Assembly (NCBI RefSeq): GCF_056746865.1
Contig: NZ_CM163382.1
Direction: 5' to 3' (one strand)
Length of the DNA: 64,000 nt
Below the pieces are notes generated by a model, which was given only the letters and a program-made list of their open reading frames with translations, was not told where the DNA came from and did no database searches. Below, piece by piece: positions 16,823-59,760 of this stretch (the first letter of the stretch is position 1; every line of letters starts with the position of its first letter). A program made the position numbers and the translations under genes.

Positions 16823-19066
16823 TCAGGCACTTTCGCGAATGGGTTCGATTTCATTCAGCGTATCAATTAACGGTTGCGGCTTACCAATAAGATAACCCTG
16901 CATATAATCGATCCCCAAAGAGAGCACCGCCTCGCGGATCTCTTCGTTTTCAACGTACTCTGCCACTACCCGCATTTTCTTCATTCGCGCCAGGTGGCAA
17001 ATCGACGCCACTATCTGATAATCCAGACTATTTGACACAATATTGCGGATAAAACTGCCGTCAATTTTAAGCAAATCGGCATTCACATTTTTAAGCCGCG
17101 CATAGCTGGCGTAGCCGGTGCCGAAATCATCAATCGCAATCTGGCAGCCTAATTCCTGAAGATGCTGCAAGGTGATTTGCGCCTGCTTAACATTGGTCAG
17201 AGCATTACTTTCGGTGACTTCAAAAATAAGTTGCCACGCTTCAATTTGATATTTAGCCAGCAGCTGACTGACTTCAACGGGAAAACGAGCCTGACATACC
17301 GAGGTTGGCGACAGATTAATCGCAAAACGGTGAGCGGGCATCTTCGCTCTGTTTTCAGCCATAAATTGCAGCGTATGCTCAATGACCCACATGTCGATAC
17401 TCGACGATAAACCAAATTCGTGCGCGACCGGCAAGAAGCTGTCGGGGCTGATCAGTTCATCATTCTCACCTTTCATGCGCAGAAGAATTTCATGGTAGAC
17501 ATCGCCACGCATACCGGTAATCAGCTGGGCCATCAGGAAAAAATGGTTGTGTTCCAGCGCCTGCTGTAGCCGATTCATCATCGCGACTTTATCTTTCAAT
17601 TCGCGTTGCAAATACATTGCCCCGCGACGCTGCATATTTTCCGGGGCGTTGGTCACGATGGAAAGCTCGGCGACCGTATTTAGCTCTCCCAGCAGCAGGT
17701 AGATATGATTCACTGGCGAGCGCACATAGCAGTAACTGACGCCAATCTGCGGTTGCATCGGCATTCCATCCCAAAAGAAACGAAATTGCTTGAGATGGCT
17801 ATCCAGTTCGGTAATGCGCTCCTGGTGCGATTCTGTATTCAGTCGCAGCGCGAGATCGTTACCCGAAAGCTGATAAACATCCTCACCCGGTTCCAGCAAG
17901 GGTGACAGCCAGTGAGAAAGTTTTTGCTTGTATTGAATCCGCAGCATGATGCCATAGTTCTTAACCAGCATTTCCATGCCAGGGATGCGTAAATAACAAA
18001 GCGCAGACCAGGGGGCATCACGCAACGCGCGATTCAGGGCGCGAACATTTGGCAGATGAACCACCGGGTCCACATACGCAAGCCGCTGAATGCGTCTGAC
18101 TACCGCTCTCTGACGGGTTGCCAGTACAGCCATATAATTGACAATAAAAGAGAATACCAGATAACTGGAGGAGGTTATGGTCAGCTGCGTGGTATAGCCA
18201 GGATAAATGGGAATGTAATTTTGATAGCTGTGGATGCTGATCATCAACACGACCGCCCAGAGCAGCGAAATCAGCTTATAACCATAGCGCATCGCTCCCC
18301 ACATCATCAGGGGCAGCAATAATGACAAGGTATAGTTGGTGCTAAAAATTGTGCTTTTTTCATTTAACGGCATGCATAACAGCAGCAGTAAAGCACCTAA
18401 TGCCAGTAGCCAGAGTGCGAACTCTTTTTTGGTGACTTTGACATCAACCTGCTGTTTTAATTGCGAATAATAACTACGTAAATAAAACGGATTTCGCACT
18501 ACACGAATGATGAAGTAGCACAGCGGGACACCAATCAGATTGCCCACCAGTAAGGCCTGATAATTGATTAAGGTCCCGAGGTTAAAAGGCATGACGCCGA
18601 CCAGATTTTCTCTGCTCGCCAGTAATCCTACAAACGCAGCAAACTGGAAAAGTATCAGAAACAGCGTTGCAGGAAACACAATCTGCCAGAATATACGCTG
18701 GGAAATTAAACGTGTATCACCATGTGAAACGTTGTTACGCCGGGGAGTAAAGACCCTGTAACCGCCCCAACAGAGAATGATAATGATAATAAAATTAGCC
18801 GTTAATGAGAGCGTTTCGTAAAAACCCAGCTCTGCATATTTGCGGACAAAAATCCCTAAGGCGATCCCTGGCAATGCCGCCCAGCTGAAAAACATCATCA
18901 TGCTGATCATCAGAGCCAGAGGCAGATAAAAGAGAAAAACCTCACCGGAAGAAATATGCGCGAAAGTATTAATGTGGGCGAAAATGGGCAAGATTAAAGA
19001 AGGCAGGAACAGCGGAAGCCCCCACCATTTATCACGTATTTTTATATAAGTTGCATTCAGTTTCAT
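16823..19066 (-). CDS. pdeF: cyclic-di-GMP phosphodiesterase with N-terminal membrane sensor domain (YfgF/PdeF)
   Basis: 747 aa; multi-TM N-terminus, degenerate GGDEF region and C-terminal EAL domain. Confidence 0.8.
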   Translation of the reverse strand: MKLNATYIKIRDKWWGLPLFLPSLILPIFAHINTFAHISSGEVFLFYLPLALMISMMMFFSWAALPGIALGIFVRKYAELGFYETLSLTANFIIIIILCWGGYRVFTPRRNNVSHGDTRLISQRIFWQIVFPATLFLILFQFAAFVGLLASRENLVGVMPFNLGTLINYQALLVGNLIGVPLCYFIIRVVRNPFYLRSYYSQLKQQVDVKVTKKEFALWLLALGALLLLLCMPLNEKSTIFSTNYTLSLLLPLMMWGAMRYGYKLISLLWAVVLMISIHSYQNYIPIYPGYTTQLTITSSSYLVFSFIVNYMAVLATRQRAVVRRIQRLAYVDPVVHLPNVRALNRALRDAPWSALCYLRIPGMEMLVKNYGIMLRIQYKQKLSHWLSPLLEPGEDVYQLSGNDLALRLNTESHQERITELDSHLKQFRFFWDGMPMQPQIGVSYCYVRSPVNHIYLLLGELNTVAELSIVTNAPENMQRRGAMYLQRELKDKVAMMNRLQQALEHNHFFLMAQLITGMRGDVYHEILLRMKGENDELISPDSFLPVAHEFGLSSSIDMWVIEHTLQFMAENRAKMPAHRFAINLSPTSVCQARFPVEVSQLLAKYQIEAWQLIFEVTESNALTNVKQAQITLQHLQELGCQIAIDDFGTGYASYARLKNVNADLLKIDGSFIRNIVSNSLDYQIVASICHLARMKKMRVVAEYVENEEIREAVLSLGIDYMQGYLIGKPQPLIDTLNEIEPIRESA

Positions 19067-19417
19067 AGATGCTCAGCAGAATCCCCCACATCCTGAAGGA
19101 GGTGTATTCAGACAGGCATCCCACCTGACTTCGAATGATGATTATTCATCACTATAGAGAGCATTGATTCTAAGTGTCATATGAAAGTTCCAATTGATAT
19201 ATATCAAACAAAATAACCCTGATTAATGAATTATTACGTTTATCATGTTAATTCATCATTATTACATCATCATTGTAAATAATTAAATTAACTTCCATAA
19301 CATTAAAATATGTATCCACTGACGCTTTTTTACATAACGAAGAATTGACCATTTTGTCCTGTTGTGCCTTAATGTAAGTACCGTCCACAGCGTGGGACAT
19401 ACTTCAAGGAACCTTTT

Positions 19418-19609
19418 GTGAGTCAGGCAACCAGTATGCGAAAACGACACCGATTTAACAGTCGCATGACCCGTATCGTACTGCTCATCAGCTTTATCTT
19501 CTTCTTTGGCCGTTTTATCTACTCGTCCGTCGGTGCATGGCAGCACCATCAGAGCAAAAAAGAAGCTCAGCAATCCACACTCTCCGTCGAATCACCGGTA
19601 CAACGTTAG
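19418..19609 (+). CDS. yfgG: small membrane protein YfgG
   Basis: 63 aa with one hydrophobic helix, in an AT-rich intergenic region between pdeF and yfgH. Confidence 0.55.
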   Translation: MSQATSMRKRHRFNSRMTRIVLLISFIFFFGRFIYSSVGAWQHHQSKKEAQQSTLSVESPVQR

Positions 19610-19919
19610 CGGTTACCTTCTCCACTTTCACAGAACATAACGGCACCTCGCTGTCGGATGCTTTTGCTCTTTGGGATTATCAAAGCGGCAGATATTCTTT
19701 CATCTTAAATTTTACGTCTTTGTCCTGACTGATGTTTTTCCTGTTTGGCTGCGAAATAAATATAAAATTAATACATATATTTTAATGATGTATTTTTATA
19801 AATTATTTCCCACATGAATTTTAATAAATTTAATCTATTCCTTTATACGCAATACATTTACTTTCCTCTTTTGATGATCTTAAATGTCTTATTTTTCGTA
19901 ATGTGTATAACAAGGAATA

Positions 19920-20438
19920 GTGATGAAATTTAAAAAATGTCTTCTGCCTGTGGCAACGTTAGCGTCATTCACTCTGGCAGGATGCCAGTCAAATGCTGAT
20001 GATCATGCCGCCGATGTTTATCAAACCGATCAACTGAATACCAAACAAGAAACTAAAACCGTTAATATTATTTCCATTCTTCCCGCAAAAGTTGCCGTAG
20101 ACAACTCCCAAAATAAACGAAACGCACAAGCCTTCGGCGCGCTTATTGGTGCAGTCGCTGGCGGTGTTATTGGCCACAACGTCGGGTCTGGCAGCAATTC
20201 CGGAACGACGGCAGGTGCAGTTGGCGGCGGAGCTGTTGGCGCGGCAGCGGGTTCTATGGTGAATGATAAAACCTTAGTGGAAGGTGTTTCTTTAACGTAT
20301 AAGGAAGGCACCAAAGTGTATACCTCCACCCAGGTGGGTAAAGAGTGCCAGTTTACGACAGGTTTAGCCGTTGTTATTACCACGACGTATAACGAAACGC
20401 GTATTCAGCCAAATACGAAATGTCCTGAAAAGAGCTAA
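19920..20438 (+). CDS. yfgH: outer-membrane lipoprotein with glycine-zipper region
   Basis: 172 aa; lipobox LAGC; Gly-rich GxxxG repeats. Confidence 0.75.
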   Translation: MMKFKKCLLPVATLASFTLAGCQSNADDHAADVYQTDQLNTKQETKTVNIISILPAKVAVDNSQNKRNAQAFGALIGAVAGGVIGHNVGSGSNSGTTAGAVGGGAVGAAAGSMVNDKTLVEGVSLTYKEGTKVYTSTQVGKECQFTTGLAVVITTTYNETRIQPNTKCPEKS

Positions 20439-24656: not shown

Positions 24657-25059
24657 CGTCTTTTCTCCCCGGAATTAACTCGCGTGGATTATCGGAACGG
24701 TGATAGAGCCAGATACCAATTCGCACTGCGACAATTGCTGATACGAATGCGCCAGCAGAGAAAACAATCCCTTTCTCGAACGAGTCCTGCGTGATGGTAG
24801 GGATCAGGCTGGCTATGCCGATAAGAATTGATGCTGCTGGTTTGTAAAAAAGAAGGCCGCAGAGAAAGCTAAGCATCGACAAAAGCACACGACGACGAAT
24901 GGGATACTCTACCGCAGAGGTAACAAAAATTACCGCTCCAGCCAAAGACCCCAAAGCAACCTCGGGAGGAACTCCTGCTATCACCGCCGCCAGAGAAGTC
25001 ATGCTAAGCCACTGATTCAAAGAATCACTGGTTGTCTGAATTGACATGATAAACACCAT
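24643..25059 (-). CDS. membrane protein, putative holin
   Basis: 138 aa with several hydrophobic helices; first gene of the lysis cassette. Confidence 0.5.
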   Translation of the reverse strand: MVFIMSIQTTSDSLNQWLSMTSLAAVIAGVPPEVALGSLAGAVIFVTSAVEYPIRRRVLLSMLSFLCGLLFYKPAASILIGIASLIPTITQDSFEKGIVFSAGAFVSAIVAVRIGIWLYHRSDNPRELIPGRKDDGNA

Positions 25060-25372
25060 TTATTTCACATAAACAACTCCATTAAATAAATGTTTATCAT
25101 ACACAATAAACCATTTATGGATAATTATTACTCGTGATTTTTATGATTATTCGCGCATTTTTCTATCATTTTTATCCAGTGTGCCGTAAAACCACGTCCT
25201 TAAGGGCGTGGATGATGTCAACTGATGATGTCAACTATTGGCTGGCTTTGACTGATATTGCAGGAGTTGTTGGATAAGATTTAAGTGACCGTCAAAGCGG
25301 TCACTTATGAGAAAAGGAAGTTAGACAAAGTGGCAAACAGGCTCATTGATGGCTACGTCAATGACCAAGGTT

Positions 25373-27775
25373 TCATTCAGACTCCAGCAACTCTATCCTG
25401 GCGAGAAGCGCTTCATATTTATCAAGTAATCGAGAGTAGTTCCTTCGTTGCATTGCAGCTTCCATTACCAACATTTCTTCATAACGAATGCCGTAACGGG
25501 AACCAGCTTCTATAGCAGGAGTGATTACCTCACCGGTTTCATCATCTATGACGGCAGGAGTGTCACCCCATTCATCATAACAGATGAAACCAAAGCGATG
25601 AGCATCAAGACCATGCCTTTCGAATGCCTCCACGTACCGTTGAGCAATGGCGCCGAAGTGCCAGCGGGCGCCATCAGCGCCTTTTTCTTTAATCCTATCC
25701 AGATACTTATACTGGACTAGCTGAACCTCTTCTGCGGCATCGAGAATGGCATCAGTCATTAGTAATGGGTCTGATTTGCAAATGGCATCTGACGTGATAG
25801 TGAACGCCGTTTGAGTGAATCCACCAGACCACGGAAACGAACTTGCCCCGCAAGGATAGGTATTTGCCGTGGCAGGACGTATTTGCTTCACAGCAAATAC
25901 GTGCGACGTCATTTCTGCTGTACCAGAACCCGTAACGCCGGGATCTCCACCAGAGACACGTAAAATCCCTGTAGGGACAGATGAGTCCGTCGATGAATAA
26001 AAGCGAATCTGCTGTGCTTCTGCAACACCAGGGTTACATAGCTTAATAGCTTTAGTTGTGAACGCATTAGTATCCGTATCAAATATCCAGTATCTGTTGT
26101 TTGAACCACCATCTATAATAACGTTCGCAAGAGATACACCAACTCGCTGTATATTAGAAATATTGTTAGCATTAGTACCAGCAGTTAACTGAATACCCCT
26201 TGTGCAATTATTTACACGCGAGTTACTAATAGTATTATTAGCAGCAAATCTAGTGCCAGCGGTATTTCCTGTCAGGAGAGTATGCGTAGTGTCCTTACTG
26301 AAGCCTGTCAATAACACCTCATTATTAGTGAACGTACCGTACTGAGCACATGATTTAAAACCGATATAAGGTGTGGTTAAATCCTCAGGAATACCATTCC
26401 ATACCATACAAAAGTTATCTGTAATTACACTATGGTTTCCTCCATTGTTAGACAAATCACCCAACTCTACAGCACTTATGGAAGTATTGAAGTGGTTATT
26501 TGTAACCTGGAACAGGTTACCAACATTGTTTTCAGAAACAACTCCGCGGCGACCAGCAATGATATGGTTACCGAAAACCACAACACCTTCGGTATCGTCA
26601 TGCGCGTACATGAAGGTGTCGAAGTTCTGATAAGAACCATTGACAATATTGATATTCTTTGTTGAGTACAGGTCGAATATTTTACCCATTCGATATGCTG
26701 GTACAGATGTTCCTCCACCAGTTACGTTAACGCCGTCAAATACACACTGACCAGCTCTGCTTAGCTTAAAGACAGTATCAAAAGAGGATTGAGTACCAGC
26801 ATCATTTGACACATCCAGGTCACGAACGATAAGTTGTCGGGCGTATTCGATTCCCCCTGTCCCTAAAAACGTAAGCGCAGTACCCTGAAGTTGCCCGGTA
26901 GCTTTTATCGTGAAATTACGTAAACCAACAGGTTTTCTTACTACAGTCGTACCCGAGTTATCAATGATAAGACCATATCCAGCAGCAAATTTTATTCCGC
27001 ATGTAGCCATGCTTACGCCAAAAACATCACTATAAAAATTAGTTACTGAGATGTCGCTTGAGCAGTTGTATATACGACGAAGCTTAATATCTAGACCAGT
27101 TTCCTTTGCTGCAGTAAAGGCATTGATCAGTGCCAAGGTATCATCAGCATCACCTCCAACAGCGCCAAAATCCTCAGGAGTGAGTGATTCCCTCATTTTA
27201 TCCTGGAACGTTCGGTATACTGCCCCATAACCATACTGAATAAACCAACCAAAACCACCAACAACCCCGGCGATTGCAGCATCGACATAATTACGCATTG
27301 AGCGATTATTTACAGCGTCCTGCTCAAGTGATGGATCTGCAAGGTTAGAAATTCTGTTTTGCTTTGCATCGTAATATTTTGCAAGCAAAGATGGTTTCAT
27401 CAATGCACGTCTGAACCACCCAAAACATTGCTGGATCAGCATCGTCAGGTAGTCAAAGGCATCTTCATGCACTTCGGGAAAAAACTTTCCCTGATTGCGA
27501 AGGTCTGTCTCCTGTACTACATCAAGCACACGATCTATCGTAATTCGCCATCCAGTAGCAAGCGGAGACGGAAGAACCACAGAACCGCCACTATAAGTGC
27601 CCGCCCCAGTTACCGTATAACCGGTATCCAGAACCAATTCTGTTACGTTCCCGTTCAGGTCAGACACCTGAACAACCAGGTCTGATTTTCTGAAAATTCG
27701 AAAAGTATACGGAAACGATGTCGTAACGCCGTTACCTGTGTATTCGTTGTGGTCAACTTCGGTTGAGACCGTCAT
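25373..27775 (-). CDS. tail fiber / tailspike with C-terminal intramolecular-chaperone (peptidase S74-like) domain
   Basis: 800 aa; central region rich in N/G/T/S repeats typical of beta-helix receptor-binding domains; C-terminal segment resembling the auto-cleaving chaperone of endosialidase-type fibers. Confidence 0.75.
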   Translation of the reverse strand: MTVSTEVDHNEYTGNGVTTSFPYTFRIFRKSDLVVQVSDLNGNVTELVLDTGYTVTGAGTYSGGSVVLPSPLATGWRITIDRVLDVVQETDLRNQGKFFPEVHEDAFDYLTMLIQQCFGWFRRALMKPSLLAKYYDAKQNRISNLADPSLEQDAVNNRSMRNYVDAAIAGVVGGFGWFIQYGYGAVYRTFQDKMRESLTPEDFGAVGGDADDTLALINAFTAAKETGLDIKLRRIYNCSSDISVTNFYSDVFGVSMATCGIKFAAGYGLIIDNSGTTVVRKPVGLRNFTIKATGQLQGTALTFLGTGGIEYARQLIVRDLDVSNDAGTQSSFDTVFKLSRAGQCVFDGVNVTGGGTSVPAYRMGKIFDLYSTKNINIVNGSYQNFDTFMYAHDDTEGVVVFGNHIIAGRRGVVSENNVGNLFQVTNNHFNTSISAVELGDLSNNGGNHSVITDNFCMVWNGIPEDLTTPYIGFKSCAQYGTFTNNEVLLTGFSKDTTHTLLTGNTAGTRFAANNTISNSRVNNCTRGIQLTAGTNANNISNIQRVGVSLANVIIDGGSNNRYWIFDTDTNAFTTKAIKLCNPGVAEAQQIRFYSSTDSSVPTGILRVSGGDPGVTGSGTAEMTSHVFAVKQIRPATANTYPCGASSFPWSGGFTQTAFTITSDAICKSDPLLMTDAILDAAEEVQLVQYKYLDRIKEKGADGARWHFGAIAQRYVEAFERHGLDAHRFGFICYDEWGDTPAVIDDETGEVITPAIEAGSRYGIRYEEMLVMEAAMQRRNYSRLLDKYEALLARIELLESE

Positions 27776-27879
27776 GTTAAATCTCCAGATAGTCGCAGCA
27801 CCCGTTGCGCCGCATATCTGGTTATTCTATTACCTGAAAAACCACATATGGATAGAAAGGCTGTAAATACGAATAGATA

Positions 27880-27894
27880 TTACCTTTCAGGTAA
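27880..27894. promoter_or_regulatory. operator-like inverted repeat TTACC-TTTCA-GGTAA upstream of the tail fiber gene
   Basis: Perfect 5-bp half-sites, 15-bp site identical to 44822-44836. Confidence 0.5.
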
Positions 27895-27956
27895 TTTGCA
27901 AAACGTGCTGGATAGCAAACAAATTATTTGCTACTGTATAAATATACAGTTATTGC

Positions 27957-28229
27957 ATGGAGAAGATTAAGATGCAGCAGTATCACTATCCACTGGAAGA
28001 CGGATTTACCGAAAGGATTCACACGCCGGGAGGCGTCAGGTCACTGGTGGAGGGATCGCACTTGATGAAATTACTCCGGGATCTCGATAAGGATGGATTT
28101 AATGTCGATGGCCCACTTGCCGAACTGACTGCACTGATTAACTACGTCACCAGCTCACAGATGTCTATGCGGGATCTGCAAACACATCTCGACTATTGTG
28201 CCGAACAATTACGAAAACAAACCCGGTAA
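27957..28229 (+). CDS. hypothetical small protein (moron candidate)
   Basis: 90 aa (85 aa from the second ATG at 27972, which has a GGAGAAG Shine-Dalgarno); opposite strand to all neighbouring late genes; followed by a hairpin at 28237-28252. Confidence 0.5.
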   Translation: MEKIKMQQYHYPLEDGFTERIHTPGGVRSLVEGSHLMKLLRDLDKDGFNVDGPLAELTALINYVTSSQMSMRDLQTHLDYCAEQLRKQTR

Positions 28230-45159: not shown

Positions 45160-45236
45160 GTGGCATTAGCTCAGCTGGACAGAGCAACCGCCTTCTAAGC
45201 GGTTGGTCGCAGGTTCGAATCCTGCATGCCACGCCA
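45160..45236 (+). tRNA. tRNA-Arg, anticodon UCU (reads AGA), prophage-encoded
   Basis: Manual cloverleaf: acceptor GTGGCAT/ATGCCAC, D-stem GCTC/GAGC, anticodon stem ACCGC/GCGGT with loop CTTCTAA, T-arm GCAGG-TTCGAAT-CCTGC, discriminator G and CCA end. Confidence 0.85.
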
Positions 45237-47374: not shown

Positions 47375-47967
47375 TGATTACCATCCTGACGTTCTTTGAG
47401 TCGCTTCCTGGCTGCCGCTATGCGATCAGCAATTGTCACATTCACATTAACATCCAGTCGTTCTTTGAATGCGTTGACGTCGACGTGCTTACCAATCAGT
47501 TCGAGGTTCTTCACCTTGTCAGGCCATTTAATTTTTTTGAGGATTGTCTCTATCGAATCCTCGTTCATGTTCATGATGGTCGATGACAGATCAAAGCCGC
47601 TAAGCGTAGTGCGCCAGATTTTCGGCCACTCGCGGATTGGCTTAAGGCTCCCATCGTCGTTGAGGATATCAATCACGTCCATCTGGTCGATCTCCACCAG
47701 GCGCATGAGAACGTAATCAGCACTGACGCGCATTCGTTTGTTGCGCTCCTCCATCAACTCGGCAATCCGTTTCTGAATGCGTTCATCGCGCATCATGACA
47801 CTGGCTTTAACTGCCGCTGTATTTGGGGAGAATCCTGCATTAATCGCAGCCTGAGTCTGGTTTTCAGGCGTTTTGATGTATGACTGGCAATAAGCCTCCT
47901 GCATTGCTGTTAGTGGCTTAAATTGCGTTGATTTGCGTTTATAGGCTTTAGGTTCAGCAGGCATCAT
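47371..47967 (-). CDS. terminase small subunit
   Basis: About 198 aa from the ATG at 47967 (the ORF track extends to 48045 through a repeat-encoded TITTTVTITT segment); basic N-terminal DNA-binding region. Confidence 0.65.
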   Translation of the reverse strand: MMPAEPKAYKRKSTQFKPLTAMQEAYCQSYIKTPENQTQAAINAGFSPNTAAVKASVMMRDERIQKRIAELMEERNKRMRVSADYVLMRLVEIDQMDVIDILNDDGSLKPIREWPKIWRTTLSGFDLSSTIMNMNEDSIETILKKIKWPDKVKNLELIGKHVDVNAFKERLDVNVNVTIADRIAAARKRLKERQDGNQ

Positions 47968-48041
47968 AACCACCGTGGTAATAGTTACCGTTGTGGTAAT
48001 AGTAACATGCAAAATAAAGCCGCCATAGTTGGCGGCAGTAT

Positions 48042-48254
48042 TCAAAGTCCATCAAATTCATCGTAAAAACTCTCGTCAAGATACCCTTCCCATTTACCGC
48101 GAATGAAAATTACATCCTCGCCGCAAGGGTGCTGACTGTCGATAACTATATCCCTCCTGGCGCAACCATACTTATGCATGAGAAATTTAACCTCTTTCGG
48201 AAAATTTGCTGAGTTATCTCTCATATCTTCAAGGTCGTAGCGTATTTTTGGCAT
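48042..48254 (-). CDS. hypothetical small protein
   Basis: 70 aa from MPKIRYDLEDM, with AAGGTG 5 nt upstream. Confidence 0.45.
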   Translation of the reverse strand: MPKIRYDLEDMRDNSANFPKEVKFLMHKYGCARRDIVIDSQHPCGEDVIFIRGKWEGYLDESFYDEFDGL

Positions 48255-48271
48255 AACACCTTCGTGACATG

Positions 48272-48613
48272 TCACACTATTAATTTCGTTTCATGCCAGC
48301 CTTTAGTCACCCAGCATTGTGAGTCACCATTACACGGACATGAATTAACTGGAACTCTCTCGCCGCACTTACCGCAACGTTTTCTACTGATCGATTTTAT
48401 ACGCCCGCGCACGCGTGCATCATCCTGGCGGATCAGTAACGCTATATACTCACCAAATTCGTAAGGCGCACGCCCGGGGCGACGCGCGGCACAGTTACGC
48501 TCAAGCATTTCAATTTCCTGAGCATCAAGCACAATCTCCAGCTTACGTACACCGGATGCAGCTTGTCTGGCTCTCTGAGCGGCTTTGCGCTCTGCTGCTG
48601 ATTTAGCCATCAA
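48272..48613 (-). CDS. hypothetical protein with C-terminal Cys-rich zinc-ribbon-like motif
   Basis: 113 aa; basic N-terminus and CGKCGERVPVNSCPCNGDSQC. Confidence 0.45.
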   Translation of the reverse strand: MMAKSAAERKAAQRARQAASGVRKLEIVLDAQEIEMLERNCAARRPGRAPYEFGEYIALLIRQDDARVRGRIKSISRKRCGKCGERVPVNSCPCNGDSQCWVTKGWHETKLIV

Positions 48614-48884
48614 TATTCACCTTTATCGCGTAAACCTTTACCGGTTTATCTCCGAAGTGCGGATGTGTGATTGTCTTGATTTCATATCCGTCATACGGGA
48701 CGTCAATTCTACGACTGGAGTCGTCGCGCTTCGGATATCCCTTTGTGATAATCAGTCGGTCATAATCCCTGAACATAATTCGCTTATTCCAGTAGTCATT
48801 ACACAGGCGATACTCTTCCGTTTTCTCTCCGCGAATCATGGCATCGAAGTATTCACCTTTGACGGCAAGTTGCAGGTTAGCCAC
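48603..48884 (-). CDS. ASCH/PUA-like small protein
   Basis: 93 aa; LAVKGEYFDAMIRGEKTEEYRL matches the N-terminal signature of ASCH-domain proteins. Confidence 0.5.
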   Translation of the reverse strand: MANLQLAVKGEYFDAMIRGEKTEEYRLCNDYWNKRIMFRDYDRLIITKGYPKRDDSSRRIDVPYDGYEIKTITHPHFGDKPVKVYAIKVNIDG

Positions 48885-49767
48885 GGTTAACCTCCTTCGG
48901 CGGTTCTGGTAGAGGCATCCAGTACAAGGCGTTCCCTAACCACGATAAAGTGCCGTCGCTCAACTCCACGTATTCCCCTTGTACCTGTCCTGCCATATAC
49001 TCGCCGTGCTTTGAATAAATTAAAATCCAATCATCTTGAGCGGGCATTCGCTCACTACAGCTTATCCAACTATCCGGAGTTACCGGATAGTTGCCAGCCA
49101 GTCTACGCAAAACAGCCTTAACAGCCTCAATACGGTCATCATCGCAATTTTCCAGCGTATCTATGCGGTCGAGCATGATGATGGCGTTATCAATATCAGG
49201 ATTGCCAGTCCACTCATTATCGCGATTGGATTCGGCAGCCTGGTTGCCAGATGCTGGCTGATTGTCGGCTTGGCTATAGCTAACAGCACGGCAGGCATCC
49301 TCTACGCCTTTAACTGCATCTGCACAGTAGTTATAGCGATTGCATTCCACTAACTTCTGCTTGAGATTTTCAATTGCTTGCGCGACATCAGCCTGTATTG
49401 GCGGAACGGCTGTTTGCTCTCGAACGTCATTAGTCGCTATCGGTTCTGCTGCCAACTGACTGGCATATTTGTTAATGGTAACGATAAGCTCTTGCTCGGC
49501 CTCATCCAGACAATCACCGATACCTCGCCTGTCACCGTCAAAATCATCGAAATCGGCACGAATCCTGGCAACCTCCCGGATTGCGGACAACACTTCACCA
49601 GGAATAAGCGGAGAGTTGCCCGATAGTACATTCTGCTCCAGCGATGCCAGAGCAATTCGTGCCAGTTCTTCCGCTTCTTCTGCTGGCAGTACAACGTTGC
49701 TACCAGGTCCGTATGTTTCGCGCCACTGCTTGATTGTCAGTAGTCGCTCTTTGGTAATAGTGATCAT
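48877..49767 (-). CDS. hypothetical phage protein with DUF551-like C-terminus
   Basis: 296 aa; C-terminal W..SERMP...YWMPLPEPP pattern. Confidence 0.45.
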   Translation of the reverse strand: MITITKERLLTIKQWRETYGPGSNVVLPAEEAEELARIALASLEQNVLSGNSPLIPGEVLSAIREVARIRADFDDFDGDRRGIGDCLDEAEQELIVTINKYASQLAAEPIATNDVREQTAVPPIQADVAQAIENLKQKLVECNRYNYCADAVKGVEDACRAVSYSQADNQPASGNQAAESNRDNEWTGNPDIDNAIIMLDRIDTLENCDDDRIEAVKAVLRRLAGNYPVTPDSWISCSERMPAQDDWILIYSKHGEYMAGQVQGEYVELSDGTLSWLGNALYWMPLPEPPKEVNRG

Positions 49768-50279
49768 GCCGCGTTTCCTTCTTTCTTATTAACAATTACA
49801 CCGTCATATATTTCATTAAGGTGCCCTCTTAACTCCATGCGCCTTAATGCAGATAACATGTAATCGCATTCAACCTGCTTATTTCCAGTAAATGGCTTAT
49901 CGTCAGGATTACCCCAACAGCAATTACCCTTGGGCCACCCATGTACTTTCCGTACTCTTCCGTTAACAACGTGAAGTAATCCCCAGCCAGGTGGTAAATC
50001 CTCAATTGAAATAATTCCCGGCTCACTAATAAAGAATCGCCAGTCGCCCATTCCAAGAGACGGATTTTTACGAAAACGCTTTTTTCTATCTGCCAACAAG
50101 TCAGCACGAGAACATTTCGCCTCTATCAGGCATGATGCTGAATTTCTGAATCCCATAGCATCTGGCTGTTCTCCGGTACTGGTTACAGCTATAAAGCGGT
50201 CATGAAAACAAACCTTGAACCCGTTGCGCTTAAGGAACTTGTACGCAATCTGACAGAGTTCGCGGTGTGTTAACGCCAT
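49764..50279 (-). CDS. PD-(D/E)xK nuclease-like protein
   Basis: 171 aa from MALTHRELCQ (AAGGAGAG Shine-Dalgarno); PD...EAK motif (EQPDAMGF ... LIEAKCS). Confidence 0.5.
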   Translation of the reverse strand: MALTHRELCQIAYKFLKRNGFKVCFHDRFIAVTSTGEQPDAMGFRNSASCLIEAKCSRADLLADRKKRFRKNPSLGMGDWRFFISEPGIISIEDLPPGWGLLHVVNGRVRKVHGWPKGNCCWGNPDDKPFTGNKQVECDYMLSALRRMELRGHLNEIYDGVIVNKKEGNAA

Positions 50280-50280
50280 A

Positions 50281-50469
50281 TCACTCTCCTTTAGTGCGCA
50301 AGTGGTTTTTCCAGCGGTTTTGCGCCGCGCTGGGCTTTTTGCAAAAACCACAATCCATCATCCCGTAATGTTTCATTAACCCCATCCGTCGGTTGCTGAG
50401 TCTCACCCACTGCCAGACGCCAGGAGCGTTTCTACGAACTAACAGAATCTTTGCTTTACGGTTTTTCAT
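50281..50469 (-). CDS. small basic protein, translationally coupled to the downstream gene
   Basis: 62 aa; AGGAGAG Shine-Dalgarno; stop overlaps the next start. Confidence 0.3.
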   Translation of the reverse strand: MKNRKAKILLVRRNAPGVWQWVRLSNRRMGLMKHYGMMDCGFCKKPSAAQNRWKNHLRTKGE

Positions 50470-50641
50470 CGCTTTGCTCTCCTGCGTCTCTTTGCTGCTC
50501 GTCGTGCCGCTGCAATACCGGTATGGCGGCGCTTTGGTGCCGGGATGATGTTGTCAGCCATCAGGACATACGGCTTTGCAATTAGCGCAGAAGCCCAAAA
50601 ACGAGTCGGGTACGGTAACAAGCCAATACATGCCACACGCA

Positions 50642-51130
50642 CTACTCACCTCCGTTGATGCGAATGCCTGTTGCAATGCTGTTTATGATGCTGTCAGTGC
50701 ATGGGGTAGAAAGCTGGGCATCTCCAGCAATTTTCATGACATCAACATCTGCATATCGAATACCGAGGTGTATCAGACCGGCTATACCTGACTTAAGCCG
50801 AGCATTTTCCATAAACAGATCCTTTGCCCGCTGTTTTTCTGCCTCAAGCTCAACGCGCAACTTCCCTACCGTTAGCGCAATATCCTCGTTCTCCTGGTCG
50901 CGTGATTTGATGTATTGCTGGTTCCTTTCCCGTTCATCCAGTAGTGCCAGCACGGTTTCTGGTCCGGCCAGAAATTTGAAGGCGTTGAGCGCATCAATAT
51001 CCACACCGTAATCTTTAAGTTCCTGTTCACTTAACAAATCATCATCAGCTGGCAACATTAACAGGCGTTCCATTGCTGGAATTGCACGTTCCGCCGCCTC
51101 ACGCAGTGCCTGGTAATTAATTTCGCTCAC
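50642..51130 (-). CDS. Ead/Ea22-like phage protein
   Basis: 162 aa; N-terminus MSEINYQALREAAE typical of the Ead/Ea22 family of lambdoid early regions. Confidence 0.55.
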   Translation of the reverse strand: MSEINYQALREAAERAIPAMERLLMLPADDDLLSEQELKDYGVDIDALNAFKFLAGPETVLALLDERERNQQYIKSRDQENEDIALTVGKLRVELEAEKQRAKDLFMENARLKSGIAGLIHLGIRYADVDVMKIAGDAQLSTPCTDSIINSIATGIRINGGE

Positions 51131-51645
51131 TGGTTGCCTCCTTTGCGAAGCTGGGCAGCAAAGTCAACTAACCACTCAGTCATTTCAACCTTCCCTACCA
51201 GGTCTGAACCAGGGTGCATACAGCAATCACTCTGCGCCGCTTTGAAATCCTTATACTCATATTCTTGGGCCACCAGATTTTTTGCAGCTTCTATAGCAGC
51301 ATCCACCCCCTGCGCCCGGACTTCAGCCAAGAAAGCGTCGGTGGCTGACATATTTCCTGTTGCCTTCATGGCCTTCAAAATAACCAGAACGCCATCTCGC
51401 CCAACCACCTCAGCGATAACCTCGGTGTTGTCGCCAACAACATCGCAGAATGCCTGAACTGCCTTACGAGCCAGCTCATTCTCCACAGCCAGCGCATTAG
51501 CACGCACCAGTTGCACTTCCAGTTGCGTTGCCAAATCGCTGAGCAGCTTTGCCACACTGCGCATATCAACGGCACCACATTCTGCTTTCAGTTCCGAAGC
51601 CATCTCATGCCCGTCGGCAACTAACCCTTTGATATTACTTTCCAT
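51127..51645 (-). CDS. hypothetical early protein
   Basis: 172 aa, overlapping the downstream start. Confidence 0.4.
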   Translation of the reverse strand: MESNIKGLVADGHEMASELKAECGAVDMRSVAKLLSDLATQLEVQLVRANALAVENELARKAVQAFCDVVGDNTEVIAEVVGRDGVLVILKAMKATGNMSATDAFLAEVRAQGVDAAIEAAKNLVAQEYEYKDFKAAQSDCCMHPGSDLVGKVEMTEWLVDFAAQLRKGGNQ

Positions 51646-51706
51646 CTTTACCCTCGCTTATCCACATAACTTATTGATTACATTGATAACTAAAAAGATC
51701 GTCGAT

Positions 51707-52054
51707 TCAGAACTCTTCGATGTTCCAGCCACCACCTGCTTTCTTTGGTTTAACCGTTACCCCGATGATTCGGAACGGATACTGATCTGCGGCGACTTTG
51801 GTTTTCACCCTGGCGTCGTCGGTCCAGAATCCCCCTTTCACTTCGTGCAGCTCCATCTCGCCGGTGGCGAGCATCACAGCAAAATCGGGCGTATAGAACG
51901 TGTTGTCAGCTAACCGCAGCTTGATACCCTCAAATCGATACCAGACGATTTCTCCTGCACGTTTACGCATCTCAAGGTGCTGGCAATACGCAGATTCTGT
52001 TTTGTTCATCTGGCCTGTTTTGAGTCGACCAAGAGCCTGTATCTGTTTTCTCAT
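51707..52054 (-). CDS. small PD-(D/E)xK-like protein (DUF1064-like)
   Basis: 115 aa; D...ELHEVKG motif. Confidence 0.45.
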   Translation of the reverse strand: MRKQIQALGRLKTGQMNKTESAYCQHLEMRKRAGEIVWYRFEGIKLRLADNTFYTPDFAVMLATGEMELHEVKGGFWTDDARVKTKVAADQYPFRIIGVTVKPKKAGGGWNIEEF

Positions 52055-52119: not shown

Positions 52120-52134
52120 TTACCCAACAGGTAA
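52120..52134. promoter_or_regulatory. operator-like inverted repeat TTACC-CAACA-GGTAA
   Basis: Second site in the same intergenic region. Confidence 0.45.
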
Positions 52135-52171
52135 CTATCAAGACATAAAAAAATGCGCTATCGCGCTGGTA

Positions 52172-55372: not shown

Positions 55373-56407
55373 ATGAGTGAATTATCAATCATCGAAATCA
55401 CACCAGACATGGCACCAAGAATTTACGTTGAAAAAGGGCTGGAAAAGTTTCTCGAGCAGATCCGTGAAGGTGTTAATGAAGTGCCTGACATTAGCACAGA
55501 CAAAGGCAGAAAGCGCATTGCATCTCTGGCTGCGAAGGTTTCAAGAAGTAAAACAGCGGTAGAAAAACCAGGACGTGATTATCTGAAACGCCTGAAAGAA
55601 CAGCCGAAAGTAGTTGAAGCAGAGTTACGACGCTTCGTAACCGAATGCGATCGGCTTCGTGATGAAGTACGCCGCCCACTCACCGAGTGGGAAAATGCTG
55701 AGAAATTACGCACTGAAGCACTGCAACAACGCCTGACAAATTTGCGAGCACTAGCTGACGTGATCGATCTCTCCGGAAACTACTTGCCATCATCTGATAT
55801 TCAGGAACGAATTCAAGAGGCTAAATCAGTAGCACTTGATGAAAGTTGGCAGGAGTACGCAGCAGAAGCTGGAGTAGCCAAGGATTCAACCATCAAGAAA
55901 CTGGAAGAATCACTCGCAGTAGCTCAAAAACGCGAGCATGAAGCCGCTGAGCTGGAGCGACTTCGCAAAGAAGCGGAGGAAAAAGCGCGCATTGAGCGAG
56001 AAGAGAATATCCGACGGGAAGCTGCTGAACAGGCCAGGCTCGAAGCTGAACAAAAAGCGAAAGCTGAAATTGAGGCTGCGGCACGCCTGGCGGCGGAAGA
56101 AAAAGCACGTGCTGAAGTAGCAGAACGTCAGCGAATTGAAGCAGAGCAGCGTGCACGACGCGAAAAAGAAGAAGCCGTTGCCGAGGAACGCCGACGCCAA
56201 GAGGCGGCAGAAAAAGCCCGCCTTGACGAACAGAAGCGTATCGCCGACGAAGAAGCGCGCCGAGCTGCAGATAAAGAGCATCGCCGTACCGTTAACCGCA
56301 GAGTAATCGCAGATCTGATAGCCCAAGGCATTCACGAAGAATTCGCGCAGAAAGCAATGTTGGCTATCGCTGGCGGCAAAGTGCAGGACGCGTATATCAA
56401 ATATTGA
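55373..56407 (+). CDS. coiled-coil protein with TolA-like Glu/Ala/Lys/Arg-rich repeats
   Basis: 344 aa; long low-complexity helical region (EAEQKAKAEIEAAARLAAEEKARAE...); first gene of the recombination operon. Confidence 0.5.
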   Translation: MSELSIIEITPDMAPRIYVEKGLEKFLEQIREGVNEVPDISTDKGRKRIASLAAKVSRSKTAVEKPGRDYLKRLKEQPKVVEAELRRFVTECDRLRDEVRRPLTEWENAEKLRTEALQQRLTNLRALADVIDLSGNYLPSSDIQERIQEAKSVALDESWQEYAAEAGVAKDSTIKKLEESLAVAQKREHEAAELERLRKEAEEKARIEREENIRREAAEQARLEAEQKAKAEIEAAARLAAEEKARAEVAERQRIEAEQRARREKEEAVAEERRRQEAAEKARLDEQKRIADEEARRAADKEHRRTVNRRVIADLIAQGIHEEFAQKAMLAIAGGKVQDAYIKY

Positions 56408-56408
56408 G

Positions 56409-56714
56409 GTGGGTATGAACGTTAATCAGCAGAAAAATCTTCAAAAAATCATGCTGGCATTCGACAAGGACTACCGCCTGTCAGAACAGCTATATGACCG
56501 ACAAGTTGAACTGATCGATAGCATCCGGCTTCATCAACTGGCCTCAACTTTTGACGCTGTAACAGGCAAAGGAGTTCGCCAGGAAGTACTGGAGGCTGCT
56601 AAAGACAGCCCTGAGTTCGAAGAACTGATGGATGCCTACCGGCGAGAGGCAATGGCAATTATCGCCCGCTGGGATCTGGCGGATCGGATTGATGGGCAGA
56701 GGGAAGCGGCATGA
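56409..56714 (+). CDS. hypothetical protein
   Basis: 101 aa, between the coiled-coil gene and the exonuclease gene. Confidence 0.45.
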   Translation: MGMNVNQQKNLQKIMLAFDKDYRLSEQLYDRQVELIDSIRLHQLASTFDAVTGKGVRQEVLEAAKDSPEFEELMDAYRREAMAIIARWDLADRIDGQREAA

Positions 56715-57532
56715 AACCGGGAATTTATTTCGACATCAGCAATGAGGACTACCACGCCGGTGACGGCGTGAGTAAGTCGCAACTGGACATGGTTGCCAAG
56801 AATCCGGCGCTTCTTAAATGGGTTCAGGCAGCACCAGAAGACGAAGAGAAAAAGTCTGCACTGGATATGGGAACCGCATTGCACTGCCTGCTTCTGGAGC
56901 CTGGAGAGTTCGACAAACGCTTCATTGTTTCACCGAAATTCGATCGTCGGACGAAACAAGGTAAAGCTGACGAAGAAGCATTTCTTCGTGATGTAGCGGA
57001 TATGGGGATTACGGTACTTGATGCCGAGCAGTGGCGGAAACTGGAGCTGATGCGTGATAGCGCAATGGCTCACCCGGCGGCACGCTGGATGCTGGAAGCA
57101 CCTGGTTACTGCGAAGCATCAATGTACTGGAATGATGAAGAGACTGGTGAGTTGTGCCGCATTCGTCCAGACAAATGGCTGAACGAGCACAACGTGATCG
57201 TCGACGTGAAAAAGGTTGCAGATATGGACCGTTTTGCACGCCACATCGAGGAATTCCGCTACCACGTGCAGGACGCAATGTACCGCGAAGGCGCAATGAG
57301 GGTTACTGGTCAGCCGCATGGTTTTTTCTTTCTTGCCGTGAGCGAAAGCATTGATTGTGGTCGGTATCCGGTACGCGTGTTCGAGCTGGATGCGCCGGAT
57401 GTCGATGCCGGGCACGCTCTGTTCCGCCGGGATCTGAATACCTATCACGAATGCCGCATCAACGATGAGTGGGGCGGAGTGGAAATTATTAAACGCCCTG
57501 ACTGGGCACGTAAACAGGATATGTACGTATGA
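56711..57532 (+). CDS. RecE-like exodeoxyribonuclease VIII (PD-(D/E)xK exonuclease)
   Basis: 273 aa; N-terminus MKPGIYFDISNEDYHAGDGVSKSQL and an internal D...E.K motif (VIVDVKKV); upstream of RecT. Confidence 0.65.
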   Translation: MKPGIYFDISNEDYHAGDGVSKSQLDMVAKNPALLKWVQAAPEDEEKKSALDMGTALHCLLLEPGEFDKRFIVSPKFDRRTKQGKADEEAFLRDVADMGITVLDAEQWRKLELMRDSAMAHPAARWMLEAPGYCEASMYWNDEETGELCRIRPDKWLNEHNVIVDVKKVADMDRFARHIEEFRYHVQDAMYREGAMRVTGQPHGFFFLAVSESIDCGRYPVRVFELDAPDVDAGHALFRRDLNTYHECRINDEWGGVEIIKRPDWARKQDMYV

Positions 57533-58410
57533 GCAATGATATCGCAATCACATCACAACCAGGCGCAACTGTAGGTACTGCTGCGGCAATCTTCAGCCCG
57601 GAGGGCATGAATCAACTGGTGCGTTTCGCGGAGTTGATGTCACAAAGCAAAGCGACTGTACCGAAACATCTTGAAGGCAAACCTGCCGATTGTCTGGCGG
57701 TGACCATGCAGGCGGCACAGTGGGGAATGAACCCTTTCGCCGTGGCGCAGAAAACGCATGTGGTAAACGGAACGTTAGGCTACGAAGCACAGTTGGTAAA
57801 CGCGGTCGTATCCTCTTCCAGCCTGCTAGCGACACGCCTGAATTATCGCTGGAGCGGTGACTGGTCGAATGTTAACGGCAAAACAGATAAATCACCGAAT
57901 CTGACGGTAACTGTGTCAGCAGTTCTTAAAGGAGAAGCAGAACCCCGTGAGCTTACCATCAGTATGGCGCAAGCCGGAGTGCGTAACTCTCCATTGTGGG
58001 AACAGGATCCGCGCCAGCAGCTTGCCTATCTTTGCACGAAACGATGGGCTCGCCTGCACGCTCCTGATGTGCTTCTCGGTGTTTACACCCCTGACGAATT
58101 ACAGGAAACGGCACCGCGCGTTGAGCGAGACATTACTCCGCAAACGACTACTGCTGCGGGAATGAACAGTCTGATCAACGCTAAACCAGTGAAAAAGCAT
58201 GATGAGCAAACGCGTAAAGCGGATAGCCGTGATCCAGAAGAAATGCTGATGGCCTTTACCAGCGCAGCGATGAATTACAGCACTGTCTCCGAACTGGATA
58301 AGGCTTACAAATACATTGCACAAAAACTTTCAGATGATGACGAACTGCTGGCAAAAGCCACCGACGTTTACAGCGTTCGTCGGGAAGAATTAAACGAAAC
58401 ATCTATGTAA
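57529..58410 (+). CDS. RecT-family single-strand annealing recombinase
   Basis: 293 aa; paired with the upstream exonuclease. Confidence 0.65.
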   Translation: MSNDIAITSQPGATVGTAAAIFSPEGMNQLVRFAELMSQSKATVPKHLEGKPADCLAVTMQAAQWGMNPFAVAQKTHVVNGTLGYEAQLVNAVVSSSSLLATRLNYRWSGDWSNVNGKTDKSPNLTVTVSAVLKGEAEPRELTISMAQAGVRNSPLWEQDPRQQLAYLCTKRWARLHAPDVLLGVYTPDELQETAPRVERDITPQTTTAAGMNSLINAKPVKKHDEQTRKADSRDPEEMLMAFTSAAMNYSTVSELDKAYKYIAQKLSDDDELLAKATDVYSVRREELNETSM

Positions 58411-58817: not shown

Positions 58818-59117
58818 GTGAGAAAGTTAAGCCGACTTGAAAAATATCACATGAATAAGGTTTCAATGCGCAGTCCGTCAAAGATTGTCGCCGTTACTCC
58901 TGCGGCGATAGAGATCGAAAAACGCGCGATTGAAAGAGAGAAAAAAGGGCAGTTCCGCATTGCCGCTCACCTTTGGCTTCAGTGTATGGATGTTGCTTCT
59001 GGTGATGTTGAGCGTGCAAGGATCGCGGTTCGCAGGGACCAATGTATCACAAAAGGTAACGGCCTTCGCCGTGGAGACTATAGCGGTATAGGATGTTGCG
59101 GGGTGGTTTATGACTAA
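58818..59117 (+). CDS. hypothetical protein, translationally coupled to the methyltransferase
   Basis: 99 aa; its stop overlaps the methyltransferase start. Confidence 0.4.
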   Translation: MRKLSRLEKYHMNKVSMRSPSKIVAVTPAAIEIEKRAIEREKKGQFRIAAHLWLQCMDVASGDVERARIAVRRDQCITKGNGLRRGDYSGIGCCGVVYD

Positions 59118-59760
59118 GAAATACACACTAATCTATGCAGATCCACCCTGGGTATACCGGGACAAAGCCGCAGATGGTAATCGCGGTGCCGGTTTTAAAT
59201 ATCCGGTTATGAGTGTGATGGATATCTGCCGCCTTCCTGTGTGGGATTTGGCCGATGAAAACTGTCTGTTGGCCATGTGGTGGGTGCCAACACAACCACT
59301 CGAAGCACTAAAAGTTGTTGAAGCCTGGGGGTTCCGTCTGATGACCATGAAGGGCTTCACGTGGATAAAATGTGGTAGTCGACAACCAGATAAACTGGTT
59401 ATGGGTATGGGACACATGACTCGCGCCAATAGTGAAGATTGCCTGTTTGCAGTTAAGGGAAAACTACCTCCGCGCATTAATGCAGGGATCGTTCAGTCAT
59501 TTACCGCACCGCGGCTTGAGCATTCAAGAAAACCAGATGTCGTTCGTGAAAAACTTGTGCAATTGTTAGGCGATGTTTCTCGCATTGAACTGTTCGCCCG
59601 CCAGACGTCTCATGGCTTCGATGTTTGGGGTAATCAGTGCGAAGACCCGGCAGTGCAACTACACCCCGGATACGCGTTGGATATTGGCGGATTAACAAAT
59701 GCATTCAGCAATGCTCCGCTGTCACCAACAGACAACCAGGGACGGGAGCGTGCAGCATGA
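59110..59760 (+). CDS. MT-A70 family N6-adenine DNA methyltransferase (orphan)
   Basis: 216 aa; catalytic DPPW motif (LIYADPPWVY); no adjacent restriction endonuclease gene recognised. Confidence 0.75.
   Translation: MTKKYTLIYADPPWVYRDKAADGNRGAGFKYPVMSVMDICRLPVWDLADENCLLAMWWVPTQPLEALKVVEAWGFRLMTMKGFTWIKCGSRQPDKLVMGMGHMTRANSEDCLFAVKGKLPPRINAGIVQSFTAPRLEHSRKPDVVREKLVQLLGDVSRIELFARQTSHGFDVWGNQCEDPAVQLHPGYALDIGGLTNAFSNAPLSPTDNQGRERAA

Follow-up and report, generated by a model that had tools for sequence, protein, structure and literature searches.

A block of ten genes at positions 48042-52054 (minus strand) was analyzed in a 64,000-nucleotide (nt) stretch of contig NZ_CM163382.1 (RefSeq assembly GCF_056746865.1); this whole stretch is called the window below. 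The block is best read as the accessory genes at the distal end of the early-right replication operon in a Uetakevirus prophage, an exchangeable cassette of ea-type genes and not a defence or anti-defence locus (probability about 0.68). Two frame genes are kept in nearly all relatives, namely a DUF1064 nuclease next to the replication genes and a ribbon-helix-helix (RHH)/Cys-rich regulator of 112 amino acids (aa) before the terminator that precedes the terminase. Between them lies a swappable lambdoid cassette comprising an Eae-like gene, an Ead/Ea22-like gene, two tiny basic open reading frames (ORFs), an MmcB-related nuclease, an EaA/DUF551 gene and an ASCH-like gene. Recombination, in part at a short boundary sequence, would exchange this cassette with Shiga toxin (Stx) phages and P1/P7 phage-plasmids. 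Both nucleases are predicted to be Mg2+-dependent structure-specific DNA endonucleases. Before packaging, they would process branched replication or recombination intermediates that the RecT/exonuclease module of the phage makes. As its counterpart does in lambda, the Ea22-type protein would influence the choice between lysis and lysogeny; the 112-aa protein would act as a transcriptional regulator at the early/late border. The outcome is mainly a clean negative, in that a block which looked like a plausible candidate for defence or anti-defence appears to be a variable accessory slot, standard for this common type of prophage, and its gene families already occur in thousands of genomes.

Exchangeable cargo between two conserved anchors

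The block DNA matched phiV10, TL-2011b, the O157 typing phages 9 and 10 and many E. coli prophages, piecewise and at 93-98% identity (megablast). An annotated layout was common to phiV10 and the best chromosomal match: repressor, cro-like gene, DnaT-type initiator, P, DUF1064, variable genes, a "transcriptional regulator" and terminase. Taken together, these DNA matches and the shared layout indicate that the window carries a prophage of the Uetakevirus (epsilon15/phiV10) type. The flanking terminase and replication genes recognized by the first-pass annotation, which a model had made from the letters and their ORFs, were confirmed by Pfam (Terminase_2, E 1.4e-29; lambda P, E 1.7e-55; DnaT domain, E 1.1e-18). 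In the leftward arm of the prophage Pfam detected a PDDEXK-like exonuclease, RecT, an MT-A70 methylase, an AntA antirepressor and an integrase.

A total of 80 related loci were fetched via the 112-aa protein and the window genes were located in them by tblastn; 62 of these loci contain both borders of the block. The DUF1064 gene was present in 61 of the 62 loci (95-100% identity, two loci 74%) and the 112-aa gene, which was the search query, in all of them. The other genes were distributed unevenly. The Eae-like gene was found in 54 loci (37-94% identity), the ASCH-like gene in 41 and the Ea22-like gene in 37, followed by the 70-aa gene (21 loci, a 186-bp presence/absence difference), the 62-aa ORF (13), EaA/DUF551 (9), the 58-aa ORF (8) and the 171-aa nuclease (8). 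The interval from anchor to anchor ranged from 1.6 to 4.8 kb, and at least 52 protein clusters were counted across 59 loci.

No record among 50,697 phage records and 5,426 complete E. coli genomes held 80% or more of the block contiguously, and pieces of it were found in 3,558 of the 5,426 genomes. The central cassette occurred in P1-like phage-plasmids and Stx phages at 96-99% identity. The slot is a hypervariable accessory region with ordinary mosaic cargo. Pfam identified Lar (E 7.8e-9), a Mom-like protein (E 1.1e-4), NinX, HNH and several DUFs in the slot cargo of the relatives. Because Lar-like and Mom-like genes occur there, the slot can carry genes of anti-restriction type; none was recognizable in the window copy.

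The closest known counterparts are the Uetakevirus phages phiV10 (p45-p55), epsilon15 (p49) and TL-2011b, which have the same anchors at the same genome position. PhiV10 shares the ASCH gene, the Ead/Ea22-like and eae-like genes and small ORFs of the VT2-Sa p07/p08 type, with pieces at 93-97% DNA identity. However, phiV10 has neither the 171-aa nuclease nor the EaA/DUF551 gene.

The ten minus-strand ORFs form a continuous run. All the genes named in the first-pass annotation exist, and the count is ten rather than nine since the 58-aa ORF had been overlooked. Each ORF matched a PHROG family (E <= 1e-38); NCBIfam yielded no usable match. The genes are small and mostly overlapping, as had been noticed, with junctions GTGA, TAGTG, ATGA, TGAnATG and ATGA and two 8-nt overlaps; the sole gap among the junctions is 61 nt. 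The ratio of nonsynonymous to synonymous polymorphism (pN/pS) against related copies was 0.06-0.13 for the larger genes and 0.37-0.48 for the three tiniest, and the ORFs were therefore taken as coding sequences under purifying selection. The 112-aa protein likely starts at ATG 48610 and the last gene likely at ATG 48254, which gives 70 aa (77 aa from GTG) and agrees with the annotation of one homologue in RefSeq. A repeat search within the block found nothing structured, and an Rfam scan of 44-56 kb returned a tRNA only. The features, in the order of transcription, are as follows.

51707-52054 (-): DUF1064 PD-(D/E)xK protein, 115 aa (Pfam, PHROG); proximal anchor, directly after the P gene
51127-51645 (-): Eae-like protein, 172 aa (phrog_492)
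50642-51130 (-): Ead/Ea22-like protein, 162 aa (Pfam Ead_Ea22)
50466-50642 (-): 58-aa ORF with Arg-rich C-terminus (phrog_13831)
50281-50469 (-): 62-aa basic ORF (phrog_1380)
50277-50291 (-): conserved gene-boundary sequence AAGGAGAGTGATATG (Shine-Dalgarno, upstream stop and next start)
49764-50279 (-): predicted PD-(D/E)xK nuclease, 171 aa, of a family without Pfam model (motif, fold, MmcB-like/Hjc kinship)
48877-49767 (-): EaA-like protein, 296 aa, with C-terminal DUF551 (Pfam DUF551)
48603-48884 (-): ASCH-like protein, 93 aa (phrog_625)
48272-48610 (-): regulator-like protein, 112 aa, with putative RHH N-terminus and Cys/His-rich C-terminus (phrog_536); distal anchor
48042-48254 (-): 70-aa protein, optional last gene of the operon (phrog_1541)
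48019-48036 (-): intrinsic-terminator-like hairpin and T-run, just upstream of the terminase small-subunit gene

The 171-aa putative nuclease and its small neighbours

The 171-aa protein had no match in Pfam or NCBIfam, and all of its database names read "hypothetical protein". Its start at ATG 50279 is correct; a longer ORF of 195 aa from a GTG is an out-of-frame read-through of the 3' end of the 62-aa gene. The resemblance to PD-(D/E)xK nucleases proposed at first was borne out, as the motif P39-D40...E53-A-K55 is invariant in the family. Among 28 close relatives, E37, D40, E53, K55, R58, D60, D64, K67 and a GDWRF stretch were invariant. Among 40 diverse relatives, D40 was invariant, and E53 and K55 were retained in at least 90%. 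The AlphaFold model (pLDDT 74) displayed a restriction-endonuclease-like core with the alpha-beta-beta-beta-alpha-beta fold.

A single-sequence PDB search with the 171-aa protein gave nothing useful. A profile search over 1.84 billion representatives returned 3,304 clusters at 50% identity (E <= 1e-3). The profile of 40 diverse members matched 3dnx_A with E 2.1e-5 across 106 positions, followed by Hjc at E about 0.3, and Foldseek against viral models gave matches named "MmcB family DNA repair protein" at E about 1e-5. On the Pfam MmcB-like model (PF06319, gathering threshold 22 bits), weak matches were obtained for 12 of the 40 diverse relatives (best E 2.9e-4), none of which reached the threshold. 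The homologue from Ackermannviridae scored 12.1 bits, and the aligned fragment of 3dnx scored 39.7 bits on the same model. Matches to Hjc (PF01870), also weak and below the Pfam threshold, occurred in 15 of the 28 and 25 of the 40 members (best E 1.3e-4). Because the MmcB-like scores stay below threshold and the window protein has no match, the profiles indicate a family that is homologous to the MmcB-like nucleases and lies outside the Pfam model, as a sister family rather than a member.

MmcB is an SOS-regulated PD-(D/E)XK endonuclease that guards Caulobacter against mitomycin C and cisplatin and acts in crosslink tolerance (PMC9578287). Compared with MmcB-like proteins (PF06319; SPO1766, PDB 3DNX; Caulobacter MmcB), the 171-aa family adds a conserved C-terminal part (W122, KPF, NKQxE, ALRR). 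The MmcB-like genes are SOS-regulated and chromosomal, whereas the 171-aa family is located in phage early regions.

By tblastn the family was found in 641 phage records, which include virulent Ackermannviridae and Vibrio phages, and it was present in 930 of the 5,426 complete E. coli genomes. The member from Ackermannviridae lies two genes from the DNA primase, with a homing endonuclease gene between. Other members are located in true nin regions (from the replication genes to Q) of Serratia and Providencia prophages. In P7, the C1-controlled hea operon includes the Ead-like upf88.3, then upf89.0 and then upf89.5 of unknown function; the product of upf89.0 is 100% identical to the 171-aa protein. 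The pN/pS of the 171-aa gene was 0.08, indicating strong purifying selection. Because virulent phages keep this family within their replication modules and purifying selection acts on it, the 171-aa protein is predicted to be more likely a DNA-metabolism enzyme than an effector protecting the lysogen. For P7 Upf89.0, a hypothetical protein widespread in phages, this yields a description as a putative MmcB-related PD-(D/E)xK nuclease with a testable activity; this family assignment is the sole new knowledge gained here.

Some further observations were made on this gene. It is annotated as frameshifted or partial pseudogene pieces in two close E. coli records (L001 7858-8498; L089 3058-3893), which could reflect sequencing error or real decay. 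In a Providencia prophage (L003 4831-5868) a family member lies between a Lar-like gene and RusA, and on a metagenomic contig (L091 46-1043) a distant member directly follows a DUF3850 (ASCH/PUA-like) gene; these pairings recur only loosely.

The two small ORFs upstream of the nuclease gene each have a PHROG match. The 58-aa ORF matched phrog_13831 (E 1.1e-41), has a GGAGGTG Shine-Dalgarno sequence just upstream of its GTG start and overlaps its neighbours by TAGTG and ATGA; its pN/pS was 0.43, with few substitutions. The 62-aa ORF matched phrog_1380 (E 4.5e-40) and had a pN/pS of 0.37. The latter had been called coupled to the nuclease, and this partnership did not hold up in the related loci, where each gene mostly occurred without the other. 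Among the loci carrying the nuclease only L024 and L082 also held the 62-aa gene, at least ten loci held the 62-aa gene without the nuclease, and in L038 and loci like it the nuclease gene directly follows the Ea22-like gene. That one profile, phrog_9263 (230 positions), covers the two proteins is explained by the out-of-frame 195-aa extension, which crosses the junction AAGGAGAGTGATATG. A functional pair of the 62-aa and 171-aa genes, and a frameshifted single gene, were both rejected on co-occurrence and on the clear Shine-Dalgarno/stop/start junction.

The remaining genes and the gene-boundary sequence

The assignment of the DUF1064 protein to PD-(D/E)xK nucleases was upheld. It scored 26.1 bits on Pfam PF06356 (cut-off 24.7), and P56-D57...E71-V-K73 is invariant in the family. 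The best PHROG match was phrog_190, named "Holliday junction resolvase" (E 5e-43), and E20, D57, E71 and K73 were all invariant. It had 6138 relatives, and nearly all of those among the matches listed were already assigned to PF06356. DUF1064 has been placed in the PD-(D/E)xK superfamily with TnsA and T7 endonuclease I as templates (PMC1189080). A single-sequence PDB search with the window protein gave nothing useful. Because it is near-universal next to the replication genes, we infer a core function for this phage type, which may be branch resolution before packaging.

The Eae-like protein is a mosaic within the ea family; it matched phrog_492 (E 4.5e-54) and shared parts with phrog_368 and phrog_250, both of which also cover the next gene; p46 of phiV10, at the same position, is named "eae-like protein". 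The next protein is indeed Ea22-like, with a match to Pfam Ead_Ea22 (PF13935; E 7.6e-33, 114.5 bits against a cut-off of 27) over residues 2-128, and other phages bear the annotation "ead/Ea22-like" on the matching DNA. Likewise, the predicted DUF551 domain was verified at the C-terminus of the 296-aa protein (PF04448; E 2.2e-10, 41.7 bits against 22, residues 233-291 of 296). Along its length this protein displayed a patchwork of PHROG matches; the matching DNA in P1-like records includes an annotation "EaA protein", and a single-sequence PDB search gave nothing useful.

The ASCH-like protein matched phrog_625 (E 1.2e-50). On Pfam ASCH (PF04266) it scored 14.3 bits against a cut-off of 21.2, with 23 residues covered. 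Its GEKTEEYR stretch corresponds to the ASCH signature GxKxxExR. The phiV10 counterpart p54 is named ASCH by RefSeq, and the phiV10 locus match is 98% identical. The pN/pS was 0.13, and a single-sequence PDB search again gave nothing useful. The 70-aa protein matched phrog_1541 (E 2.9e-39).

The 112-aa protein had been described as a Cys-rich zinc ribbon. The Cys-rich part stood, since C79-x2-C82-x8-C91-x-C93-x5-C99-x6-H106 was invariant in 114-115 of 115 sequences (the window copy and 114 homologues), and no PDB or Pfam match was found for it. The protein matched phrog_536, named "transcriptional regulator" (E 6.7e-55), and its N-terminus weakly matched RHH proteins (LexA-regulated RHH protein, E 0.046). 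It was found at 554 confirmed loci in IMG/VR, and its pN/pS was 0.06. A homologue search retrieved only relatives of at least 78% identity, all of them unnamed, which indicates conservation but no function. The gene is the last conserved one ahead of a strong terminator-like hairpin and the terminase genes, and it is plausible that the protein acts at the early/late border.

The sequence AAGGAGAGTGATATG at 50277-50291 is a single exact copy in the window. Of the 80 related loci, 46 had the 15-mer AAGGAGAGTGAnATG; it was usually a single copy, and all copies lay within the slot. The 49 boundary copies in the related loci and the window were located upstream of more than 20 different genes. Upstream, it was usually extended as ...GGCATTCGCATCA, coding for the C-terminus ...GIRIKGE in genes of the Ea22 type. 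The combined element ...GGCATTCGCATCAAAGGAGAGTGAnATG consists of the end of an Ea22-type gene, a Shine-Dalgarno sequence and the next start (loci L007-L086). A 40-mer extension matched 433 phage records, among them Stx phages, P7 and lambda itself, where the match lies at the 3' end of ea22. The 3' end of the Ea22-like gene in the window bears a diverged second copy at its junction with the 58-aa ORF (about 50640-50670, minus strand). In comparison with L038, the 58-aa and 62-aa ORFs form an insertion of ~350 nt between two boundary copies.

Module exchange at short conserved boundary sequences is a model given in the background of PMC3233612 for mosaic phages. The window element resembles it in being ~16-35 nt long, in lying at exact gene junctions before many unrelated genes and in flanking an insertion. 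It differs from the model in that it is also coding and a translation signal, with GIRIKGE and stop, Shine-Dalgarno and next start. We infer that the boundary sequence is a site of cargo exchange by recombination; because the element is a stop/Shine-Dalgarno/start signal, its conservation could instead be selected for translation. It gives a concrete example of possible cargo exchange between Uetakevirus, Stx, lambda-like and P1/P7-like elements.

Alternative explanations and flanking features

The first-pass annotation had recognized no known complete system in the block, and none was found with PADLOC-DB 2.0 either. Nine of the ten proteins had no match, and the tenth scored 14.8 bits against PD-Lambda-4_A (E 0.001), which is chance level and without a partner. 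PADLOC on the cargo of 59 related loci returned only generic HNH matches. The suggestion of candidates for defence or anti-defence was not sustained, because apart from this chance-level score no gene matched a PADLOC model and the nuclease family also occurs in the replication modules of virulent phages. The annotation had named routine lambdoid nin homologues without defence domains as the outcome counting against such a role. Computationally, the result came essentially to this: all genes were routine lambdoid accessory homologues without defence domains, with no NinB, NinG or RusA match in Pfam.

The parallel to the nin region of lambda (NinB/Orf, NinG/Rap, RusA) stood in part. Both blocks are variable, non-core cargo between replication and late genes, with tightly overlapping dispensable small genes and structure-specific nucleases, but the genes here are of the ea or exo-xis type and not nin. 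The NinB, NinG and RusA families of Pfam had no match among the ten proteins, and the block is followed by a terminator and terminase, not by Q and lysis genes. The analogy is therefore positional, yet it is not empty, since the 171-aa family occurs in the true nin regions mentioned above; NinX is likewise present in the slot of relatives.

An explanation that is unlikely but deserves weight is that the ea-type genes (Ea22-like, Eae-like, EaA and the small ORFs) mainly tune lysis-lysogeny and host physiology, with the nuclease as a passenger. The Ead/Ea22 homology reported above agrees with this, and lambda Ea22 is pro-lysogenic, ea22 genes are mosaic and exo-xis genes modulate development (PMC10834534). 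Homologous Ead/Ea22, Eae and EaA/DUF551 genes occur in the exo-xis regions of lambda and Stx phages, in the ea region of P22 and in the P7 hea operon, where the same cassette is controlled by C1; the boundary sequence is found at the end of lambda ea22. However, the ea genes of lambda and P22 belong to the leftward PL operon, where xis and exo/erf flank them, whereas those of the window follow the replication genes in the rightward operon. The C-terminal domain of the Ea22-like protein also differs from the lambda domain that was studied, the Pfam match being limited to residues 2-128, and the proposed roles of Eae, EaA and the small ORFs are predictions.

It is distinctly unlikely that the cargo is anti-defence, with the MmcB-related nuclease, the ASCH-like or EaA/DUF551 protein or the tiny basic proteins neutralizing host immunity early in infection, possibly by destroying a nucleic-acid signal or structure made by a defence system or by binding a restriction complex. 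The early expression position and hypervariability are typical of accessory regions that are known hotspots for counter-defence genes, and an undescribed counter-defence function is possible for this reason (bioRxiv 10.1101/2023.04.06.535777). The Lar-like and Mom-like genes in the slot of relatives, and the occurrence of the nuclease family in both temperate and virulent phages, as for many counter-defence genes, point the same way. On the other side, no described anti-defence family was matched in Pfam or PHROGs, and the nearest kin of the nuclease family are DNA-repair and junction-resolving enzymes. Its Ackermannviridae member is located in a replication module, and a pN/pS of 0.08 is unlike an arms-race signature. 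A narrower version, in which the 171-aa family counters DNA damage inflicted by the host or a defence that targets or modifies DNA, as a counter-defence of DNA-repair type rather than a routine resolvase, is more doubtful still. Such an enzyme might excise lesions or crosslinks, or cut structures induced by the defence. A preprint on an accessory-gene screen mentions neither Ea22 nor Uetakevirus, and the vB_EcoP_ZX5 paper contained nothing on the block genes.

Very improbable is a defence or toxin-antitoxin role, with the 171-aa nuclease as a toxin or an effector of abortive infection that the translationally coupled 62-aa protein restrains and that would protect the lysogen from superinfection. 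The small ORF immediately upstream with its TGAnATG junction fits such a pair, and phrog_9263 implies that fused annotations exist somewhere. However, the "fusion" is explained by the out-of-frame 195-aa extension, the two genes do not co-occur in related loci and the Ea22-like gene is joined directly to the nuclease in several of them. The genes also lie in a repressed lytic operon and not behind a lysogenic promoter, the family occurs in virulent phages and PADLOC gave no match.

The accessory ea-type cassette of a Uetakevirus replication operon is therefore preferred, and several points weigh against it. The functions of all block genes are computational predictions, and most of the cargo genes are without an inferable activity. 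Two branch-processing nucleases in one operon would be redundant. The structure model of the DUF1064 protein was poor (pLDDT 64), and its fold search returned no match at all. In the Providencia prophage a member of the 171-aa family adjoins RusA, and the family is therefore not simply a RusA substitute. PADLOC (2023) and Pfam are blind to undescribed anti-defence functions, for which a variable early region such as this leaves room.

The hairpin that closes the block has the sequence GCCGCC-AACT-ATGGCGGC followed by TTTATTTT, with 7 pairs, 6 of them G-C, and the annotators of phiV10 also placed a terminator at the end of the corresponding gene block. Because the hairpin lies inside the TTG-extended ORF of the terminase small subunit (TerS), the TerS gene probably starts at the ATG near 47965 instead. 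After the hairpin, a direct repeat GTGGTAATAGT(T/A)AC occurs twice at 47975-48006, and the region 47960-48045 (minus strand) may contain a late promoter or regulator site. The sequence GGTAACTAT was found only twice in the 64 kb, at 52130-52138 (plus strand) and 47981-47989 (minus strand), one in each intergenic region bordering the block. Two matches were reached by 2 of 100 shuffles, a result too weak to interpret; GGTAACTAT could be a shared regulatory site or chance.

Elsewhere in the window, the leftward early arm (56711-58410 and 59110-59760, both plus strand) encodes a DUF3799 PDDEXK-like exonuclease with RecT, and an MT-A70 DNA methyltransferase. The exonuclease is the third PD-(D/E)xK protein of the prophage, and no gene of the block is as obvious a candidate for anti-restriction as the methyltransferase. 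A 344-aa ORF without Pfam match (55373-56407, plus strand) lies just left of the repressor. It is apparently missing from the best-matching E. coli prophage, as judged by coordinate offsets against L001, and may be another accessory insertion. In the late region, a tRNA gene (45160-45233, plus strand; Rfam 71.7 bits) is located between the terminase large-subunit and portal genes, and a tRNA-Arg is annotated at the equivalent position in a related prophage. Low-GC stretches were found at 19000-20000 (0.37) and 25000-28000 (0.41-0.44), compared with ~0.50 elsewhere. The second of these overlaps an 800-aa ORF (25373-27775) near the prophage end, which is possibly a tailspike or a horizontally acquired gene.

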